DNA of 47,681 nt from Patescibacteria group bacterium (lineage in GTDB: Bacteria; Patescibacteriota; UBA1384; 2-12-FULL-50-11): the NCBI GenBank assembly GCA_022843855.1, contig JALHMV010000004.1:1-47681 (forward strand). Direction: 5' to 3'. Below are positions 4,342 through 12,528 of this stretch, piece after piece; within the stretch, counting starts at the first letter, position 1, and every line of letters begins with the position of its first letter. The position numbers were made by a program, and so were the translations under genes. Under the pieces are notes generated by a model. It worked only from the letters and a program-made list of their open reading frames with translations, searched no databases and had not been told where the DNA came from.

Positions 4342-4680
4342 ATGAGCAAAACACACAACGAAAAGCGCGCCGCCGCCAAGTCGAGCATCCGAATTAAGCT
4401 CAAAGCTTACGATTACCGGGTCATCGACCGCAGCGCCAAAAAGATCATCGAGACGGCTGAAAGAACCGGCGCGATTGTCGCCGGTCCGATCCCGCTGCCG
4501 ACGGAAAAAAATCTTGTCACCGTCAACCGATCGACCTTCGTCCACAAGGACGCACGCGAACAGTTCGAGATCCGCACCCACAAGCGCATCATCGACGTCT
4601 TGGACCCAAATCCAAAGACGCTTGATGCCCTAATGAACCTGGACCTTCCAGCAGGTGTAGACATCGAAATTAAAACGTAA
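4342..4680 (+). CDS. rpsJ: 30S ribosomal protein S10
   Basis: 112 aa. [39 protein letters not shown] is typical S10. Confidence 0.97.
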
Positions 4681-4749
4681 ACGTTTTACTTCTCGTTGCG
4701 AGGCAACTCGCAGTCAAAACCTAAGAGCTCAAAACAAGGTTTGCAAAAA

Positions 4750-4775
4750 GGCCGCTCACCAGAGCGGGCTTTTTG
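4750..4775 (+). terminator. Rho-independent terminator-like hairpin after rpsJ
   Basis: ccgctc-acca-gagcgg stem-loop followed by cttttt. It sits where rplC would normally follow rpsJ. Confidence 0.55.
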
Positions 4776-4824
4776 TTACCCGAATCTTTCCCGAACAGCT
4801 CGTCTGTAGTAAAATACCGTTAAC

Positions 4825-6315
4825 ATGGCAGCGGAAGCTAATCTTGAACAAAAACTTTGGGAGGCTGCTGATACATTGCGCGGAAATATTTCTTCATCTG
4901 AATACAAAGAGGTCGTTTTAGGCCTCATTTTTCTTAAATACATTTCCGATGCGTTCGAGAAGAAATATAATGAGCTGAAGCAGAGCCCGGTATCTGAGCC
5001 GGAAGATCGCGACGAATACACGATGGAAAATATCTACTGGGTGCCCAAACAGGCGCGCTGGTCCTTTATCCGTGATTACGCTAAACAGCCAGCAATCGGA
5101 ACCATTGTTGATAACGCCATGGAGGAGATCGAGAAAGATAATCCCGATCTTAAAGGGGTACTTTTCAAAAATTACGCACGTGAAAGTTTGGACAAACGCC
5201 GTCTCGGGGAGTTGATTGATATTATCTCCAGCATCGATATGTCGGGTCCGGACAAAGGAGATGTGCTGGGCCGCGTTTACGAATACTTTCTTGGTAAATT
5301 TGCCCATGCCGAAGGGCAACGCGGTGGTGAATTCTTTACGCCAAAATCAGTCGTGAAGCTGCTTGTCGAAATGGTCCAGCCGTTCAACGGCCGGGTGTAT
5401 GACCCGTGCTGTGGTAGTGGCGGCATGTTTATACAAAGTGAAAAATTTGTTCTCGACCATCAGGGCAGGATCGACGATATTCATGTCTTTGGCCAAGAGC
5501 TAAATACAACGACAATGCGGCTCGCCAAAATGAATCTGGCCATGCACCATATCGACGCCAAACTCGAGAACGGCGATACGCTCCATAATGATAAACACAA
5601 AGATTTAAAGGCAGATTTCATCCTTGCCAATCCACCGTTTAATGTCAGCGATTGGGGGGAAGAGCATTTGCGTAATGATCTCAGATGGAAGTACGGTATC
5701 CCACCGAAAGGTAACGCTAACTTTGCCTGGGTTCAGCATTTCATTCATCACTTAGCGCCGCGTGGTGTTGCTGGTTTTGTCTTGGCCAACGGTTCTATGG
5801 CCTCGCAAACATCCGGTGAAGGTGAAATTCGCAAGAATATTGTCGAAGCTGACTTAGTTGATTGTATTGTCAGCTTGCCGGATAAGTTATTCTTTAACGC
5901 GGCTATTCCTGCATGTCTGTGGTTCATTGCTCGCAATCGCGAAAACCGCAAAGGCAAGACACTGTTCGTCGACGCGCGCAATATGGGCACGATGATCAAT
6001 CGTCGGAACCGTGAACTGACTGATGCTGACATTCAGAAAATCTCCTATGCATACCACAGCTGGAAAGGTAGTAACGGTGGCGATTACAAGGATGTTCCTG
6101 GCTTTTGCAAGGTTGCCACAGTCAAAGAGATTGCCGAGCAAGACTATATCCTCACTCCTGGCCGCTACGTCGGCAGCGAAGAAATTGAAGAAGACGACGA
6201 GGCGTTCGAAAACAAAATAAAGAGGCTTACAGTAGAACTTTACAGTCAATTTGAGGAGAGCCGCAAGCTCGAATCAGAAATTAATGATAATTTGCGAAAG
6301 ATTAACTATGAGTAA
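4825..6315 (+). CDS. hsdM: Type I restriction-modification system, DNA methyltransferase subunit M
   Basis: 496 aa. HsdM N-terminal domain (LEQKLWEAADTLRGNISSSEYKEVVLGLIFLKYISD), AdoMet motif I (VYDPCCGSGGMF) and N6-adenine motif IV (NPPF). Confidence 0.93.
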   Translation: MAAEANLEQKLWEAADTLRGNISSSEYKEVVLGLIFLKYISDAFEKKYNELKQSPVSEPEDRDEYTMENIYWVPKQARWSFIRDYAKQPAIGTIVDNAMEEIEKDNPDLKGVLFKNYARESLDKRRLGELIDIISSIDMSGPDKGDVLGRVYEYFLGKFAHAEGQRGGEFFTPKSVVKLLVEMVQPFNGRVYDPCCGSGGMFIQSEKFVLDHQGRIDDIHVFGQELNTTTMRLAKMNLAMHHIDAKLENGDTLHNDKHKDLKADFILANPPFNVSDWGEEHLRNDLRWKYGIPPKGNANFAWVQHFIHHLAPRGVAGFVLANGSMASQTSGEGEIRKNIVEADLVDCIVSLPDKLFFNAAIPACLWFIARNRENRKGKTLFVDARNMGTMINRRNRELTDADIQKISYAYHSWKGSNGGDYKDVPGFCKVATVKEIAEQDYILTPGRYVGSEEIEEDDEAFENKIKRLTVELYSQFEESRKLESEINDNLRKINYE

Positions 6316-6838
6316 AAAGCGATTTACGACATACGCGTTTATAGACAGCCAGAACCTAAATCTGGGAACAAAAAAGGATATCTATAAGAATGGCAAGCGA
6401 ATATACAAAGGTTGGCAGTTGGATTTTAAGAAATTTCGACGCTATCTTTCAGATAAATTTAGGGTCGAGAAGGCTTTTCTCTTCATTGGATATATTAAGC
6501 AATACAGAAGCCTTTACCGGAGCCTTCGATCATACGGCTACGAGCTAGTCTTTAAGCCAACCGTCACAGATTCGGACGGTAAGCCAAAGGGTAATGTTGA
6601 CGCTGAGTTGGTACTGCACGCAGCGGCGATCGAGTACGGCAATTTCGATCAGGCGGTGATTGTTGCAGGTGACGGAGATTATAGGTGTTTATGTGAATTC
6701 TTGGTAACTAACAATAAGTTGCGAGCACTTGTTATTCCAAACTCCCTTTCCGAATCGGTATTACTGAAGGATTTTCAGAGATTCAAATTCTTTATTCAGT
6801 ACGAAAAAGATAAGTTGATTATGGAAACTCAGGGTTAA
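6308..6838 (+). CDS. NYN/LabA-like (PIN-fold) predicted ribonuclease embedded in the hsd operon
   Basis: 176 aa from ATG 6308, which overlaps the hsdM stop by 8 nt. Acidic motifs typical of NYN domains: AFIDSQN, GNVDAELV, VIVAGDGDY. Family call from motif memory, not a search. Confidence 0.72.
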   Translation: MSKKRFTTYAFIDSQNLNLGTKKDIYKNGKRIYKGWQLDFKKFRRYLSDKFRVEKAFLFIGYIKQYRSLYRSLRSYGYELVFKPTVTDSDGKPKGNVDAELVLHAAAIEYGNFDQAVIVAGDGDYRCLCEFLVTNNKLRALVIPNSLSESVLLKDFQRFKFFIQYEKDKLIMETQG

Positions 6839-6946
6839 AGGAAATGAGAGGCGTCACATATAACACGCAGTTATACGCTCGTTTCTCTCTCCTGATATCT
6901 AGATTTTCTCATTTTTCTCTACTTAGTCAACCTATTAAGGCTCCAA

Positions 6947-8104
6947 ATGACTAAAACTGTCTTGCTCGGAAATGTTGCAGAAATAAATGCAAATCAGGTA
7001 GGAAAAGGGTATCCATATGAAAAAATAAAATATATTGATGTGGCTTCAGTAAGTAGCGGTAAGGTCGAGAAGATAGATTTAGATTTAGCTAACGCTCCAA
7101 GCAGAGCAAGACGCATTGTACGCGACAATGATATTTTGATTTCTACGGTGCGGCCGAATTTGAAGCACTTCGCGTACATACCAGAAGCCGAGGAAAACTT
7201 GGTTGCCTCGACTGGCTTCGCCACAATTTCTGGCAGCCAAAATGTTGATCCAAAGTACCTCTACTACTATATGACCAGAGACGATATAACAAATTACCTT
7301 ACTTCAGTGGCCGAAGGCCAAGCTACTACATTTCCAGCCTTCCGACCTGAAATTTTACAGAATCTAAAAATTACCCTGCCTGAGCTTGAACAGCAAAAGA
7401 AGATTGGCAACTTTCTTTATTCTCTGGATAAAAAAATCGAACTCAACCAGCGGATGAATGAGACACTGGAAAAAATCGGCCAAACACTTTTTAAGCACTA
7501 CTTCATCGACAACCCCGACCGAAATAATTGGGGAAAACGGTCTTTGAACAGCTTCGGAGAGATAATATGTGGAAAGACACCGCCGAAAAATCGCGCCGAA
7601 TATTTTGGTGGAGTAATTCCCTTCATAAAAATTCCTGACATGCATGGGCAGGTTTTTATTACCGAAACGCAAGATAACCTGACAGAACCTGGTCGAGACT
7701 CTCAAAGAAATAAAACACTGCCCGCCAACACGATATGCGTAAGTTGTATTGCAACTGTCGGGCTAGTTTCGCTTACTTCACAGCCGTCGCAAACAAATCA
7801 GCAAATAAACTCAGTAACACCGACTGAAAAGGAGTACACCTATTATCTATACTTCATGCTCAAAAGCATTAAATCTCAATTGATTGACATGGCCAGCGGA
7901 GGTTCGGCAACGCCTAACTTGAATACTTCATCATTTTCTAAGATTTCTATCACCACTCCTGACAATAAAATTCTTCGTAAATTCGACCAGACTGTAAGAA
8001 TAATTTTCGAGAGGATTCTTAATAACCAAAATCAAAACAAACAGCTAGCCGAGCTTCGCGACTCACTTTTGCCGCGGTTAATTTCTGGGAAAATTCATGC
8101 TTAA
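6947..8104 (+). CDS. hsdS: Type I restriction-modification system, specificity subunit S
   Basis: 385 aa with two target-recognition halves separated by the conserved helical spacer (LPELEQQKKIGNFLYSLDKKIELNQRMNETLEKIGQTLFKHYF). C-terminal repeat of the same type (QLAELRDSLLPRLISGKI). Confidence 0.88.
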   Translation: MTKTVLLGNVAEINANQVGKGYPYEKIKYIDVASVSSGKVEKIDLDLANAPSRARRIVRDNDILISTVRPNLKHFAYIPEAEENLVASTGFATISGSQNVDPKYLYYYMTRDDITNYLTSVAEGQATTFPAFRPEILQNLKITLPELEQQKKIGNFLYSLDKKIELNQRMNETLEKIGQTLFKHYFIDNPDRNNWGKRSLNSFGEIICGKTPPKNRAEYFGGVIPFIKIPDMHGQVFITETQDNLTEPGRDSQRNKTLPANTICVSCIATVGLVSLTSQPSQTNQQINSVTPTEKEYTYYLYFMLKSIKSQLIDMASGGSATPNLNTSSFSKISITTPDNKILRKFDQTVRIIFERILNNQNQNKQLAELRDSLLPRLISGKIHA

Positions 8105-9470
8105 GACGGTAAAGATTTCGCAATATAAAGGTTTCTACGGTACTCAGACGATAGAATTTGCAGTACCAAATAATTCAAGTTTTGGTAGTGGATTAACACT
8201 TGTTGTGGGACCGAATAATACGGGCAAGACCACGGTGATAGAATCATTACTCATTACAGAATCTAAGAAATTCAAAGAAAGTGAGCGACATGGTAAAAAT
8301 GTGCCTAAAATTGTCATAGGAAACACGCAAGGTGGTGCGACGACCTACACCAATAATCGTGGCGGGTCATTAATAAGCTTTTCTGGGGCGCATCATGGGA
8401 TAAATTTTGAACTCATCCCTTCAAGGCGATACTGGCAGTATAAGTTTGGAGGACAACATAATTTTCAACAGTTGGTTAGCCAATCCATTGCAGGAGAGAC
8501 CAGAAATTCGAATGTCTTCGATTTGGGCCCGGTATTAAAAACCATACTTTCCGATAGTCGGATTTTGGAAAGGTTTAACTCACTAATGAAGAGGGTGATC
8601 CCGCACTTTACAAGCTGGACAATTGATACGGGCGATGATGGTAGCGACTACGTAAAATACAAAACAGCCAGCACCTACCATCAATCGAATTTGTTGGGTG
8701 ATGGCATCATCTCTCTGTTTAGGATAGTTGCCCACTTAATCCATGACCAGTCGACTACTTTTATTATTGACGAGCCAGAACTTTCGCTCCACCCCGCAGC
8801 ACAGAAAAGGCTCGCTGCGGTTTTGTCTGAACTCTCTAAAGATAGACAGATAATAATCTGTACTCACTCTCCTTATTTTATTAACTGGCATGATTTTGCT
8901 AATGGAGCAAAAGTGATACGGCTGAACAAGGACGCAGAGACCCCTTGTCGCGTTTACTCGCTGGACAACTCAAAAGACTACTCTCGCTTTATTTCAGGAA
9001 CGATAAATGAATATCAGAAACCTCAATTGCTAGACTTAGCAGCAAAGGAAATTCTATTTAGCGACAGAATATTTTTTACCGAGGGGCAGGAGGATGTTGG
9101 TTTAATTAAAAGGTGGATGGCAGATAACGATATAGCTCAACCATTCGAAATATTTGGCTATGGCGTGGGCGGAGAAAAAAATATGAAGCTCTTCTTGGAA
9201 ATGGCGAAAGATCTTGGAATTGCAAAAGTAGCGGCATTATATGACTCAAATTCAACAAATTATAGCTCCGATCAGAGTAGTTATCCCGACTTCTTATTAA
9301 AAAAGCTTTCGACCGAAGACATTCGGGACAAAGTAAATAGGTGCATACGAAGTTGCCCATACGGGAAAGATAGAAACGGCACTTTTCTTTCAAATGGGAG
9401 AATCAAAACAACGGAAAAATCTAATTTCCAAGCTTTAATGAATGAAATAGTAACGCACTTATCGACTTAA
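8097..9470 (+). CDS. ABC-type ATPase fused to a Toprim/DUF4435-like C-terminal domain (OLD-family-like), embedded between hsdS and hsdR
   Basis: 457 aa. Walker [10 protein letters not shown] (aa 38-46), signature-like LLGDGIISL, Walker [13 protein letters not shown] (aa 222-233), H-loop ICTHSP. C-terminal [16 protein letters not shown] (Toprim-like Glu, aa 329) and AALYDSNS (degenerate DxD). Overlaps the hsdS stop by 8 nt and ends 1 nt before the hsdR ATG. Confidence 0.72.
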
Positions 9471-9471
9471 A

Positions 9472-12400
9472 ATGACTGAAGAAAAAATCGAAAAAGAGGC
9501 ATTGAAAATTTTAGAACGGCTTGGCTGGCAGATTTTGAGCGGGCCGGAAATCGGACCGGAAGGGTCGAGTGAGCGAAAGTACGACGAAGTAATTTTGACA
9601 CGGCGTCTTAGCGAAGCGATTGCGCAGTTAAACCCACGACTTCCAGCATCCACGATCGACGAAGTCGTCAAAAAAGTTAGTCGTCATGATCATCCGGAAA
9701 TGCTGCTGGACAATCACCAATTTCACCAGCAATTAACCGATGGTGTGAGTGTTGAATATAGGGCATCAAATGCCGAAGTTCGGACTGAGCAGGCGAGGGT
9801 TTTTGATTTTGAGAATCCTGAAAACAATGAATTCGTAGCAGTTAATCAGTTCACGGTTATTAATGGCGATTATCACCGTCGACCGGACATTGTTCTGTTT
9901 GTAAGCGGTTTACCATTGGGAATCATTGAAATTAAAGACCCGACTGATGAAAGAGCAACATTAGAAAGTGCATATAACCAACTGCAGACATACGAAGCGG
10001 AAATTCAGCCGTTATTTCGATTCAACGCACTGGAAATAATTACCGACGGCATTGATGCGGAGGTTGGAACAATCAGTGCAACCTATGAACGCTTTAATGC
10101 TTGGAAAAGCATTGATGGCAAAAAAGATCACTCAGGCGTACCTATGCTGAAAGTATTGCTGCGTGGTGTTTGTGACAAAGCGCGATTTTTAGAAATAGTT
10201 CGTAGCTTTATTGTTTTTGAAAAAGATAAAAAACACGGATTTATTAAAAAGCTGGCTGGCTATCACCAATACTGGGCAGTGCAAAAAGCGCTTGACTCTA
10301 CCGTGAAATCAATTCGACCGGGCAGTGATCATCGCGTGGGAGTTATTTGGCATACGCAAGGATCCGGTAAGTCGCTGTCCATGGTTTTTTATGCAGGCAA
10401 GTTGGTCGCTAATCCAGAACTCAGAAATCCAACGGTAATTGTGGTGACAGATCGAAACGATTTAGATAACCAGTTATTTGATACATTCTCGAACTGTCCT
10501 GAGTTGTTGCGTCAAATGCCGGTACAGGCAGAAAGTCGTGACCATTTACAGGAAATACTCAAAGTTCAGTCGGGCGGAATTATTTTCACAACCAATGCAA
10601 AATTCTTTCCAGAAAACGGCAAAGAATTTCCGCTATTAAGTGATCGAGAAAACATTATTGTGATTGCTGACGAAGCCCATCGCAGTCAGTACAACTTTAT
10701 TGACGGCTTCGCCAAACACATTCGCGATGCCTTGCCCAATGCTAGCTTTATTGGTTTTACGGGTACGCCAATTGAGGCCGATGATCGTTCAACACCAGCA
10801 GTGTTTGGTGACTACTTAGATGTTTATGACATCGAGCAGGCCGTTAAGGACGGGGCGACTGTTCCAATTTATTACGAAAGTCGTCTTGTTGAGCTGGATA
10901 TCAACAAAGATATGCGAGCCCGTATAGATAATGAAGTTGCCGAAGTAATCGGTGAGGAAGAGTTAGATCGTCAAGAAGAACTGAAGGCAAAATGGGCGCA
11001 AGTTGAGGCGGTGGTTGGCAACTCAAAACGAATTGAACGAATTGCTAGCGATATAGTTGAGCACTTTGATAATCGCCTTAGTGCAATCGACGGTAAGGGC
11101 ATGATTGTGACGATGAGTCGACGGATAGCAGTTGATTTATATAGCGCCATTGTCTCCCTGAAACCGGAGTGGGTAGGGGAAAGCGACAAGGAGGGTTTCC
11201 TAAAAGTGATAATGACTGGCTCAGCAACCGATCCGGTTGATTGGCAACAGCATATTCGTTCAAAAGAACGGCGCAGAGAGTTGGCGGATCATTTCAAGGA
11301 GCCAAGCTCACCGTTTAAGCTGGTGATCGTGTGCGATATGTGGTTGACAGGTTTTGATGCGCCAAGTTTACATACTATGTATCTAGATAAGCCGCTAAAA
11401 GGCCATAACTTAATGCAAGCTATTGCGCGAATTAACCGTGTGTATACGGATAAGCCCGGCGGTGTAGTTGTTGACTATCTGGGCGTCGCCGCAGCTTTGC
11501 GTGAAGCATTGCAGGACTACACGGTAAGTGGTGGCAAAGGCCGACCAACGCTCGATCAGCGCGAAGCTGTGGCGGTGATGATGGAAAAAATCGAGCAACT
11601 TCGCGATATGTTTCACGATTTCCCATATCGAAAGTACTTTACGGCTGATACTAAACGGCAGTTGCAGGTCTTGTTGGATGCTCAGGAATACGTCCTCTTG
11701 CAAGAAGAAGGGGAGAAGCGCTTGAAGCAGTATGTTCTAGAGCTTTCGAAGGCATTTGCATTAGCCGTTCCAAATGCGCAGGCACTGGCGACTCGCGAAG
11801 AGGTGGCATTCTTCCAGGCGGTGAGAGCGAGGCTTTCTAAGATTGTAGAAAAGGGGAAGAGCGATCAGGACTTTGGGGCGGCAATCAAACAGATCGTTGA
11901 TAAAGCCATCGCCCCGGCTGGTGTGGTGGATATCTTCGAAGCCGCGGGAATTGATAAACCAGATATTTCTATACTGTCTGACGAATTCCTGGCTGAGATT
12001 AGAGGTATGGAGCGCAAAAATTTAGCGGTTGAGGCATTGCGTAAGCTGCTGGACGGAGAGATCAAGGCAAAATTCTCCAAAAATGCAGTAAAGCTTGGTT
12101 CGTTTGCCGAGATGTTGGAGAAGGCCTTGTTGCGTTATAAAAACAATGCGATTGAAGCCGCGCAAGTCATTGAAGAATTGATAGAAATCGCCAACACTAT
12201 TCGATCTTCGGAAGAAGAAGGTGAAAAACTTGGTCTGTCGCCTGATGAGATTGCATTTTACGATGCATTGGCACAGAACGACAGTGCTCGTGCGGTGATG
12301 GGTGATGACAAATTGCGTGACTTGGCACGATTGTTGGTGAAAAGGGTTCGAGAGAATATTACTGTTGATTGGTCAGTACGAGAAGCAGCTCGCGCTCGTC

Positions 12401-12528
12401 TTAAAGTTATGGTCAAAAGACTACTACGAGAATACGGTTATCCGCCAGATCAAGAAAAAATAGCAACTGAGCTTGTGCTTGTGCAGGCTAGTTTGTTTGG
12501 CGACGAATGGAGTAGTCGTGACCGCTAA
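9472..12528 (+). CDS. hsdR: Type I restriction enzyme, endonuclease/translocase subunit R
   Basis: 1018 aa. N-terminal PD-(D/E)xK nuclease ([21 protein letters not shown]). SF2 motor motifs HTQGSGKS (I), [10 protein letters not shown] (II, DEAH) and FTGTP (III). C-terminal helical domain of the kind seen in HsdR ([10 protein letters not shown]...[10 protein letters not shown]). Confidence 0.93.

Follow-up and report, generated by a model that had tools for sequence, protein, structure and literature searches.

We describe here a predicted two-part genetic element in a 47,681-nt stretch of Patescibacteria DNA (contig JALHMV010000004.1 of assembly GCA_022843855.1; hereafter the window). A gene for a LabA-type NYN (PIN-like) nuclease lies inside a type I restriction-modification (R-M) operon, between hsdM and hsdS, and is followed on the opposite strand by a predicted small-RNA gene. 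The NYN gene and this RNA probably, though far from certainly, form a self-contained, mobile module resembling a toxin-antitoxin (TA) system. To judge from comparison of homologous loci, the module would reside in the hsd operon as a passenger, and its conserved partner would be the antisense RNA rather than the restriction enzyme.

A predicted small-RNA gene at the 3' end of the NYN gene

The 108-nt gap that follows the NYN gene (6839-6946) is real. The original prediction, an earlier reading of this DNA, suggested that it could hold an internal promoter for hsdS. A promoter scan found no such promoter on the plus strand, and no plus-strand terminator was found in the gap either; 96 of its 108 bases are instead taken up by the promoter and transcript of a candidate small-RNA gene on the minus strand. 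The gap is thus predicted to hold a convergent antisense RNA gene. The putative transcript (6835-6897, minus strand) begins with the 5' tail UAUCAGGA, continues into a long imperfect hairpin and ends in a U-rich tail that covers the NYN stop codon (6836-6838). Its fold has a minimum free energy of -23 kcal/mol (z -4.55), and it is the single match of covariance model R1 in the 855-kb genome (61.3 bits, E 9e-14). The promoter of the window copy consists of a -35 box TTGACT, a 16-nt spacer and a TG-extended -10 box GAAAAT, which ends 7 nt ahead of the conserved TCA box.

Comparison of the flanks of 155 NYN genes (300 nt on either side, short blastn) placed the similarity almost wholly 3' of the gene, with 632 significant pairs downstream versus 14 upstream, in a conserved block that begins at the NYN stop codon. 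Read on the antisense strand, the block has a common layout: TTGACA, about 17 nt and TATAAT, then 7-8 nt, an (A)AUCAY box, a long imperfect hairpin and a U-run. A promoter scoring at least 9/12 was present in 99 of 115 non-redundant RNA instances, with 7-8 nt between the end of its -10 box and the conserved box; among shuffles, 11 of 115 reached this score. There are two main types of the RNA, one for each NYN clade. Type A pairs with the clade marked by an insert of 12-14 residues after helix 1, which includes the window protein, and type B with a clade of lower identity; most of the remaining NYN genes have further RNA variants behind them. At the majority of the loci sampled, the NYN gene thus has an RNA of this kind downstream.

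An alignment by MAFFT and RNAalifold misplaced the inner stem (10 pairs only) and was replaced by a covariance-model realignment, which for type A covers 59 instances. In this alignment, 89.5% of the cells pair; shuffles reach 73%, and slid controls 37-50%. Compensatory changes occur in 12 of 16 pairs. The covariation score of 0.451 (versus 0.149) was reached by none of 500 shuffles. The outer helix of type B is 96% paired, with compensatory changes in six of its seven pairs. A permissive search of Rfam 15 over six loci, including that of the window, gave no match. The possibility that the element is a peptide gene was rejected: type A lacks an AUG altogether, and the AUG of type B comes with neither a conserved stop codon nor a ribosome-binding site. 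At two loci, a single NYN gene is followed by two tandem copies of the small RNA (L058:8511-8689 and L137:1606-1804).

The conserved element might alternatively act on the NYN-sense strand or as DNA, either as a hairpin for stability or processing in the 3' untranslated region or as an attC-like recombination site, with no separate RNA gene. The cassette-like mobility of the NYN gene would suit a recombination site; a wobble-pair test of the two strands was equal overall (89.5% versus 90.1% and 84.4% versus 84.4%), and two internal positions pair better on the NYN-sense strand. On the other side, three features are confined to the antisense strand: full (100%) pairing of the solid helices, a U-run after the hairpin, and the TTGACA-N17-TATAAT promoter at its fixed distance of 7-8 nt. 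Copies of the element away from NYN genes retain both promoter and U-run. We therefore take the antisense strand as the one that would be transcribed, and regard a sense-strand or DNA element as improbable.

The NYN protein is most likely a metal-dependent RNase

The 176-aa open reading frame of the original prediction (6308-6838, plus strand) translates without internal stops, and the motifs quoted for it are all present: FIDSQN at residues 11-16, NVDAEL at 96-101 and AGDGDY at 120-125. Its N-terminus aligns with those of homologues, which indicates that this start is correct. The ATG (6308-6310) lies within the last codons of hsdM, in an overlap of 8 nt, ATGAGTAA, and is thus placed for translational coupling to hsdM, as had been proposed; an abutting or overlapping junction recurs at other hsdM-NYN loci. 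At loci of other kinds, the NYN start overlaps or abuts unrelated upstream genes, suggesting that the NYN gene is a promoterless cassette.

The protein matches the Pfam family NYN (PF01936) with a score of 49 bits (E 1.2e-12; the cut-off is 24.2), and every homologue among the matches listed carries the same domain. An AlphaFold2 model built from 78 homologues (pLDDT 92.9) has the alternating strand-helix order and the three-layer alpha/beta architecture of a PIN-like fold, in a single soluble domain of 176 aa without an extra N-terminal domain. The sole Foldseek match of this model in the PDB at E<=0.001 is the NYN/LabA-like protein VPA0982 (2qip; TM 0.72-0.77), which phmmer against the PDB also retrieves (E 3e-9), with the D and GDGD motifs aligned. 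Predicted structure and profile search therefore both assign the protein to NYN and not to a non-nuclease family. Among the 78 homologues, no substitution occurs at D98, D122 or D124, and D13 is kept in at least 90%, so that no loss of the acidic residues is seen. The protein has no match in NCBIfam, in PADLOC (E<=0.01) or in PHROGs. From sequence and model, the earlier assignment as a NYN/PIN-like and probably metal-dependent nuclease with intact acidic residues stands, and the product is most likely an active-looking LabA-type NYN nuclease that would act as an RNase. Elsewhere in the genome there is another canonical NYN gene (G000:C6:4156-4605, L005/L196; PF01936, 117 bits), which is too divergent to be found by tblastn with the window protein; neither RNA model matches beside it.

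The NYN-RNA pair is patchily distributed in Patescibacteria

At least 7,986 proteins match the NYN family, many of them about 70% identical across classes of the candidate phyla radiation (CPR). Among 401 genomes sampled evenly from the phylum, the family is patchy: it is present in 108, with several copies in some genomes and in-frame stops (pseudogenes) in others. The closest relatives belong to other classes. Neighbourhoods were examined within 8 kb on either side of 60 genomic and 80 metagenomic NYN copies, using the Hsd proteins of the window and of locus L007 for the screen, and Pfam and PADLOC for the immediate neighbours. The flanking genes differ widely between copies; most are unrelated and of housekeeping type, such as those for GTPases, tRNA synthetases and SecA. 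Four long contigs have wholly different NYN neighbourhoods: one has the order hsdM-NYN-NYN-hsdS-Abi_alpha-hsdR, and three have no R-M system nearby.

Within the 401 genomes, 62 of 87 RNA matches are convergent at a NYN 3' end, mostly at -20 to +50 nt, and the RNA is retained at R-M-embedded NYN copies where it was looked for. Twenty of the matches away from NYN 3' ends were inspected. Five stand beside NYN remnants and one beside the 5' end of another NYN gene; the other 14 are weighed below. Among the loci L199-L218, RNA copies beside C-terminal remnants occur at L201, L205 and L217, and the lone copies (for example L199:2001-2062 and L210:2001-2062) adjoin genes for an NTP transferase, CysRS, GatB, CTP synthase and topoisomerase I. 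Since the convergent neighbours of the orphan RNAs are ordinary housekeeping genes, the idea that these copies mark another toxin family was ruled out.

Individual loci illustrate the range of settings. At L007 (7145-8677), two NYN genes of different clades stand in tandem between hsdM and hsdS, each with its own RNA type, B after the first and A after the second. An IMG/VR viral contig (L188:3835-8882) carries a NYN gene with its RNA between the portal and large-terminase genes, in opposite orientation. In three genomes of one family (L057, L058 and L059), the NYN gene follows a gene for a translational GTPase of about 598 aa; a methylase or hsdM gene lies just downstream in two of the three, which suggests a local insertion hotspot.

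Linkage to restriction-modification systems is recurrent but facultative

A survey of NYN genes adjoining hsdM had been proposed with the original prediction, and the linkage that it reveals is real and recurrent but facultative: 9 of 122 NYN copies in the 401-genome sample (later coordinates) adjoin R-M loci. The formal test, which predates the finding of the ninth copy, compared 8 of 125 with an expected 0.4% (p ~4e-8); this expectation is rough, being based on approximate counts, and two of the eight, both type IIG loci, were absent from the N6_Mtase matches. About 7% of NYN copies thus lie beside or inside R-M loci, some 17 times the rough chance rate, and for more than 90% of the family no R-M gene is nearby. 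An N6_Mtase match was found in 54 of 108 NYN-bearing genomes versus 87 of 293 others (odds ratio 2.4, p 2e-4, no phylogenetic correction), so the other 54 NYN-bearing genomes have none. In a maximum-likelihood tree of 150 NYN proteins, built by a quick search, linkage to R-M has to change 11 times, and branches with good support require five or more independent gains. In two genomes of one family, the NYN-RNA cassette lies between genes for a SNF2/DrmD-like helicase and a type IIG restriction-methylase (L048:140-5312 and L051:4354-10594). As shown by Payne et al. (2024, bioRxiv 10.1101/2024.01.29.577857), most of the genes that lie within Hma, BREX, DISARM and type I R-M systems have defence functions.

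The original prediction compared the locus with PrrC, proposing a latent RNase held by the R-M complex. On this model, HsdMSR would keep the NYN protein inactive, and a phage that inhibits restriction would free it. Several features speak for this proposal: the NYN gene is nested in the hsd operon and coupled to hsdM, the order hsdM-NYN-hsdS recurs at L007, L108 and L157, the association with R-M systems is well above chance, and PrrC itself is a precedent. However, most copies and half of the host genomes are without an adjacent or detectable N6-methylase, which argues, indirectly, against a nuclease that needs HsdMSR for its latency. The place of the NYN gene relative to hsdM also varies (after it, before it or past hsdR), NYN genes are nested in helicase and type IIG systems as well, and the embedded copies retain their own RNA partner. 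Moreover, the NYN protein has no ATPase or sensor domain, and no PADLOC PrrC match was obtained. Restraint by the R-M complex is very improbable, and the proposal is not supported in that form.

Proposed mechanism and its weighing

We propose that the mobile unit in Patescibacteria is a cassette consisting of the NYN gene and a structured RNA of about 60 nt, which would be transcribed from its own opposite-strand promoter and end on the NYN stop codon. In the window, the NYN gene would borrow the transcription and the translational coupling of hsdM. Every NYN transcript would carry, in its 3' untranslated part, a stretch fully complementary to the small RNA, which probably restrains the nuclease as an antisense to the mRNA, as a ligand of the protein or in both ways. 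The pair would then act as a TA or abortive-infection module. In the hsd operon, the cassette would add a second conflict function beside restriction, as the OLD-type gene two genes downstream would, rather than supplying the restriction enzyme with a subunit. A conflict element fits the patchy spread across classes, the multiple copies and pseudogenes, the copy on a viral contig, the orphan RNAs and the enrichment in modification-based defence loci. What the sequences themselves show is the NYN fold with its catalytic residues, the hsdM junction, an RNA gene with conserved and covarying structure, promoter and U-tract, the almost exclusive location of that gene at NYN 3' ends, and repeated, independent embedding in R-M loci. 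Transcription of the RNA, RNase activity, toxicity of the NYN protein, its control by the RNA and a role in defence are inferred.

Several points weigh against this toxin-antitoxin-like module. Toxicity of the NYN protein is an assumption, and the strand test described above does not separate the two strands overall. Other R-M-embedded type-A promoters that were compared score 10-11/12, whereas that of the window scores 9/12; its U-tract, AUUUCCUUUAA, is interrupted and likewise weaker than at those loci, so that this copy of the RNA may be poorly expressed. The weak promoter and U-tract may ease read-through from hsdM to hsdS, or may signal decay. Fourteen of the 20 inspected orphan RNAs stand alone by housekeeping genes with promoter and U-run intact, which suggests that the RNA may have a role of its own. 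Type I toxins known to us are small membrane peptides, which the NYN protein does not match, and the type III antitoxins known to us are tandem repeats upstream of the toxin, which the RNA does not match. Finally, HEC-09, a NYN candidate that was found by its embedding in a defence system, protected against none of the phages tested (bioRxiv 10.1101/2024.01.29.577857).

Some of these points would suit a non-toxic accessory RNase for RNA processing or turnover, for which the RNA would be an autoregulatory antisense, a substrate or a cofactor, and the hsd operon a tolerant insertion site (a 'genomic sink'). The very high conservation of the protein, about 70% identity across classes, would be expected of such an enzyme, as would its mainly translation and housekeeping neighbours, the lone RNA copies by housekeeping genes and the failure of HEC-09 to protect against phages. 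A conflict or selfish element, however, fits better with the patchiness, multiple copies, pseudogenes, phage carriage and cross-class relatedness, and the enrichment at R-M loci (about 17-fold over a rough chance rate, acquired at least five times independently) also counts against such an enzyme. We regard the non-toxic RNase as unlikely, but as an explanation to be taken seriously.

A more specific form of the toxin-antitoxin-like reading can be put forward tentatively, as a speculation. The pair might represent a new class of RNA-gated nucleases, widespread in Patescibacteria and some of their phages, in which one structured RNA would silence a PIN-like RNase at both the mRNA and the protein level, with the conserved 5' AUCAY box and the loop of the RNA serving for recognition, as a repeat-free hybrid of types I and III. 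Such a module might fire in infection as a back-up to restriction. In the hsd operon, the RNA might also cut or occlude the hsdM-NYN-hsdS transcript, thereby making hsdS and hsdR expression depend on the module's state.

Host operon and genomic setting

The genome around the locus, in 39 contigs, comprises 855 kb of Patescibacteria DNA, and the names of homologues likewise assign it to Patescibacteria/CPR. The gene order is rpsJ, terminator, hsdM, NYN, hsdS, ABC-ATPase/OLD-TOPRIM and hsdR (Table 1), and the type I R-M system is complete, with hsdM, hsdS and hsdR on the same strand. The region 4342-4825 contains rpsJ (S10) and a strong intrinsic terminator (that of rpsJ, at 4752-4767, upstream of hsdM), after which the hsd operon follows directly in place of rplC; the R-M locus therefore lies inside the usual S10 ribosomal-protein cluster. 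The ATPase/OLD-TOPRIM gene overlaps the hsdS stop codon, and 1 nt separates its end from the ATG of hsdR.

Table 1. Features of the hsd operon in the window, and arrangements of NYN genes at R-M and related loci.
Feature	Position or loci	Strand	Evidence
hsdM, type I R-M methyltransferase subunit	4825..6315	+	Pfam N6_Mtase 2.6e-112 and HsdM_N; PADLOC MTase_I 1e-207
LabA-type NYN (PIN-like) nuclease gene, 176 aa	6308..6838	+	translation; PF01936 49 bits; AlphaFold2/Foldseek; conserved D13, D98, D122, D124
Predicted small RNA, ~60 nt, convergent with the NYN gene	6835..6897	-	covariance model R1, fold energy, family covariation
Predicted sigma-70-type promoter of the small RNA	6930-6903	-	promoter scan 9/12; family conservation
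hsdS, specificity subunit	6947..8104	+	Pfam Methylase_S 6.4e-39; PADLOC Specificity_I 9e-85
Second passenger: compact ABC-type ATPase with OLD-like TOPRIM nuclease	8097..9470	+	AAA_15, AAA_21, OLD-like_TOPRIM; PADLOC Old 1.2e-22
hsdR, restriction subunit	9472..12528	+	TIGR00348 hsdR 4e-186; PADLOC REase_I 1127 bits
hsdM-NYN-(hsdS) loci	window, L007, L108, L157		
NYN-hsdM…hsdS loci	L059, L164, L183, G017, G279		
NYN just past hsdR	G045		
Methylase-NYN	L076		
SNF2 helicase-NYN-type IIG enzyme	L048, L051		

Novelty and significance

Literature on NYN proteins with antisense RNA or TA systems, and on CPR bacteria with NYN proteins, yielded no description of a NYN-RNA pair, and the small antisense RNA gene behind NYN is apparently undescribed. 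New from this locus are the occurrence of the predicted pair inside a type I R-M operon, the measurement of a linkage to R-M systems that is recurrent and facultative, and the retention of the RNA in embedded copies.

Patescibacteria are thought to have few known defence systems. If our reading is true, the pair would be a very abundant TA or defence module, with more than 7,900 protein homologues and a presence in about one quarter of the sampled Patescibacteria genomes; the NYN fold would join the RNA-controlled toxins, and the RNA would constitute a new bacterial small-RNA family absent from Rfam 15. The recurrent nesting by hsdM would offer a concrete case for studying why defence genes embed in R-M operons. 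There is also a warning for annotation, as the 'intergenic gap' behind such NYN genes is predicted to be a gene.

Comparison with known systems

The NYN-RNA pair has the defining features of neither type I nor type III TA systems, nor of PrrC, and it shares individual features with each of them. Type I loci with a convergent antisense RNA overlapping the 3' end include txpA/RatA and bsrG/SR4 of B. subtilis and fst/RNA II of the E. faecalis par locus. At the level of sequence, the NYN locus resembles these in having an RNA gene with its own promoter and terminator that converges tail-to-tail on the protein gene, with complementarity to the 3' end of the latter, and also in being patchy and mobile, with orphan RNA copies. 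It differs from them in that the protein is a soluble NYN nuclease of 176 aa, not a short membrane peptide, and in that the RNA, known here from sequence alone, has conserved boxes and a covarying fold beyond the needs of antisense pairing.

SymE/SymR and RalR/RalA are type I pairs with nuclease toxins, and the NYN locus would share with them a nuclease-type toxin under the control of a small RNA. Their toxin folds are unrelated to NYN, and these pairs are not known to involve a conserved family of structured hairpins. The position of the RNA differs as well: the overlap of SymR is with the 5' end of its target, and the pairing site of RalA is inside the coding region, whereas the RNA described here lies at the 3' end.

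The predicted combination of an endoribonuclease with a structured RNA is reminiscent of the type III systems ToxIN, CptIN and TenpIN, which often act as abortive-infection modules, the role to which we liken that of the NYN-RNA pair. As in type III systems, the RNA type, here A or B, switches with the clade of the protein, and the conserved boxes of the RNA suggest recognition by the protein in the manner of those systems. Known type III antitoxins, however, are tandem repeats on the same strand, upstream of the toxin and processed by it, whereas the RNA here is single, downstream and on the opposite strand, with two tandem copies in L058 and L137 only.

The NYN gene resembles prrC of EcoprrI (hsdM-hsdS-prrC-hsdR) as a gene for a putative RNA-directed nuclease nested in a type I R-M operon. 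PrrC combines an ABC-ATPase-like N-terminal domain with a C-terminal nuclease domain, whereas the NYN protein is a single domain with no ATPase match. PrrC is found almost only in type I R-M systems, between hsdS and hsdR; the NYN gene adjoins hsdM or lies outside the operon, and its family members are mostly elsewhere. The slot of prrC, the hsdS-hsdR interval, is occupied in the window by the ATPase/OLD-TOPRIM gene.

HEC-09 (Payne et al. 2024) is likewise a NYN-domain candidate embedded in a DNA-modification defence system. It is MARF1-like and has an extra N-terminal helix-turn-helix-like domain, with no RNA partner reported (bioRxiv 10.1101/2024.01.29.577857); unlike HEC-09, the window protein matches no PADLOC model (E<=0.01). 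VPA0982 of Vibrio parahaemolyticus (2qip), a NYN protein of the LabA/DUF88 type, is 21% identical to the window protein and does not have the insert of 12-14 residues, yet it shares the same fold (TM 0.72-0.77) together with the KGxxD and GDGD motifs.

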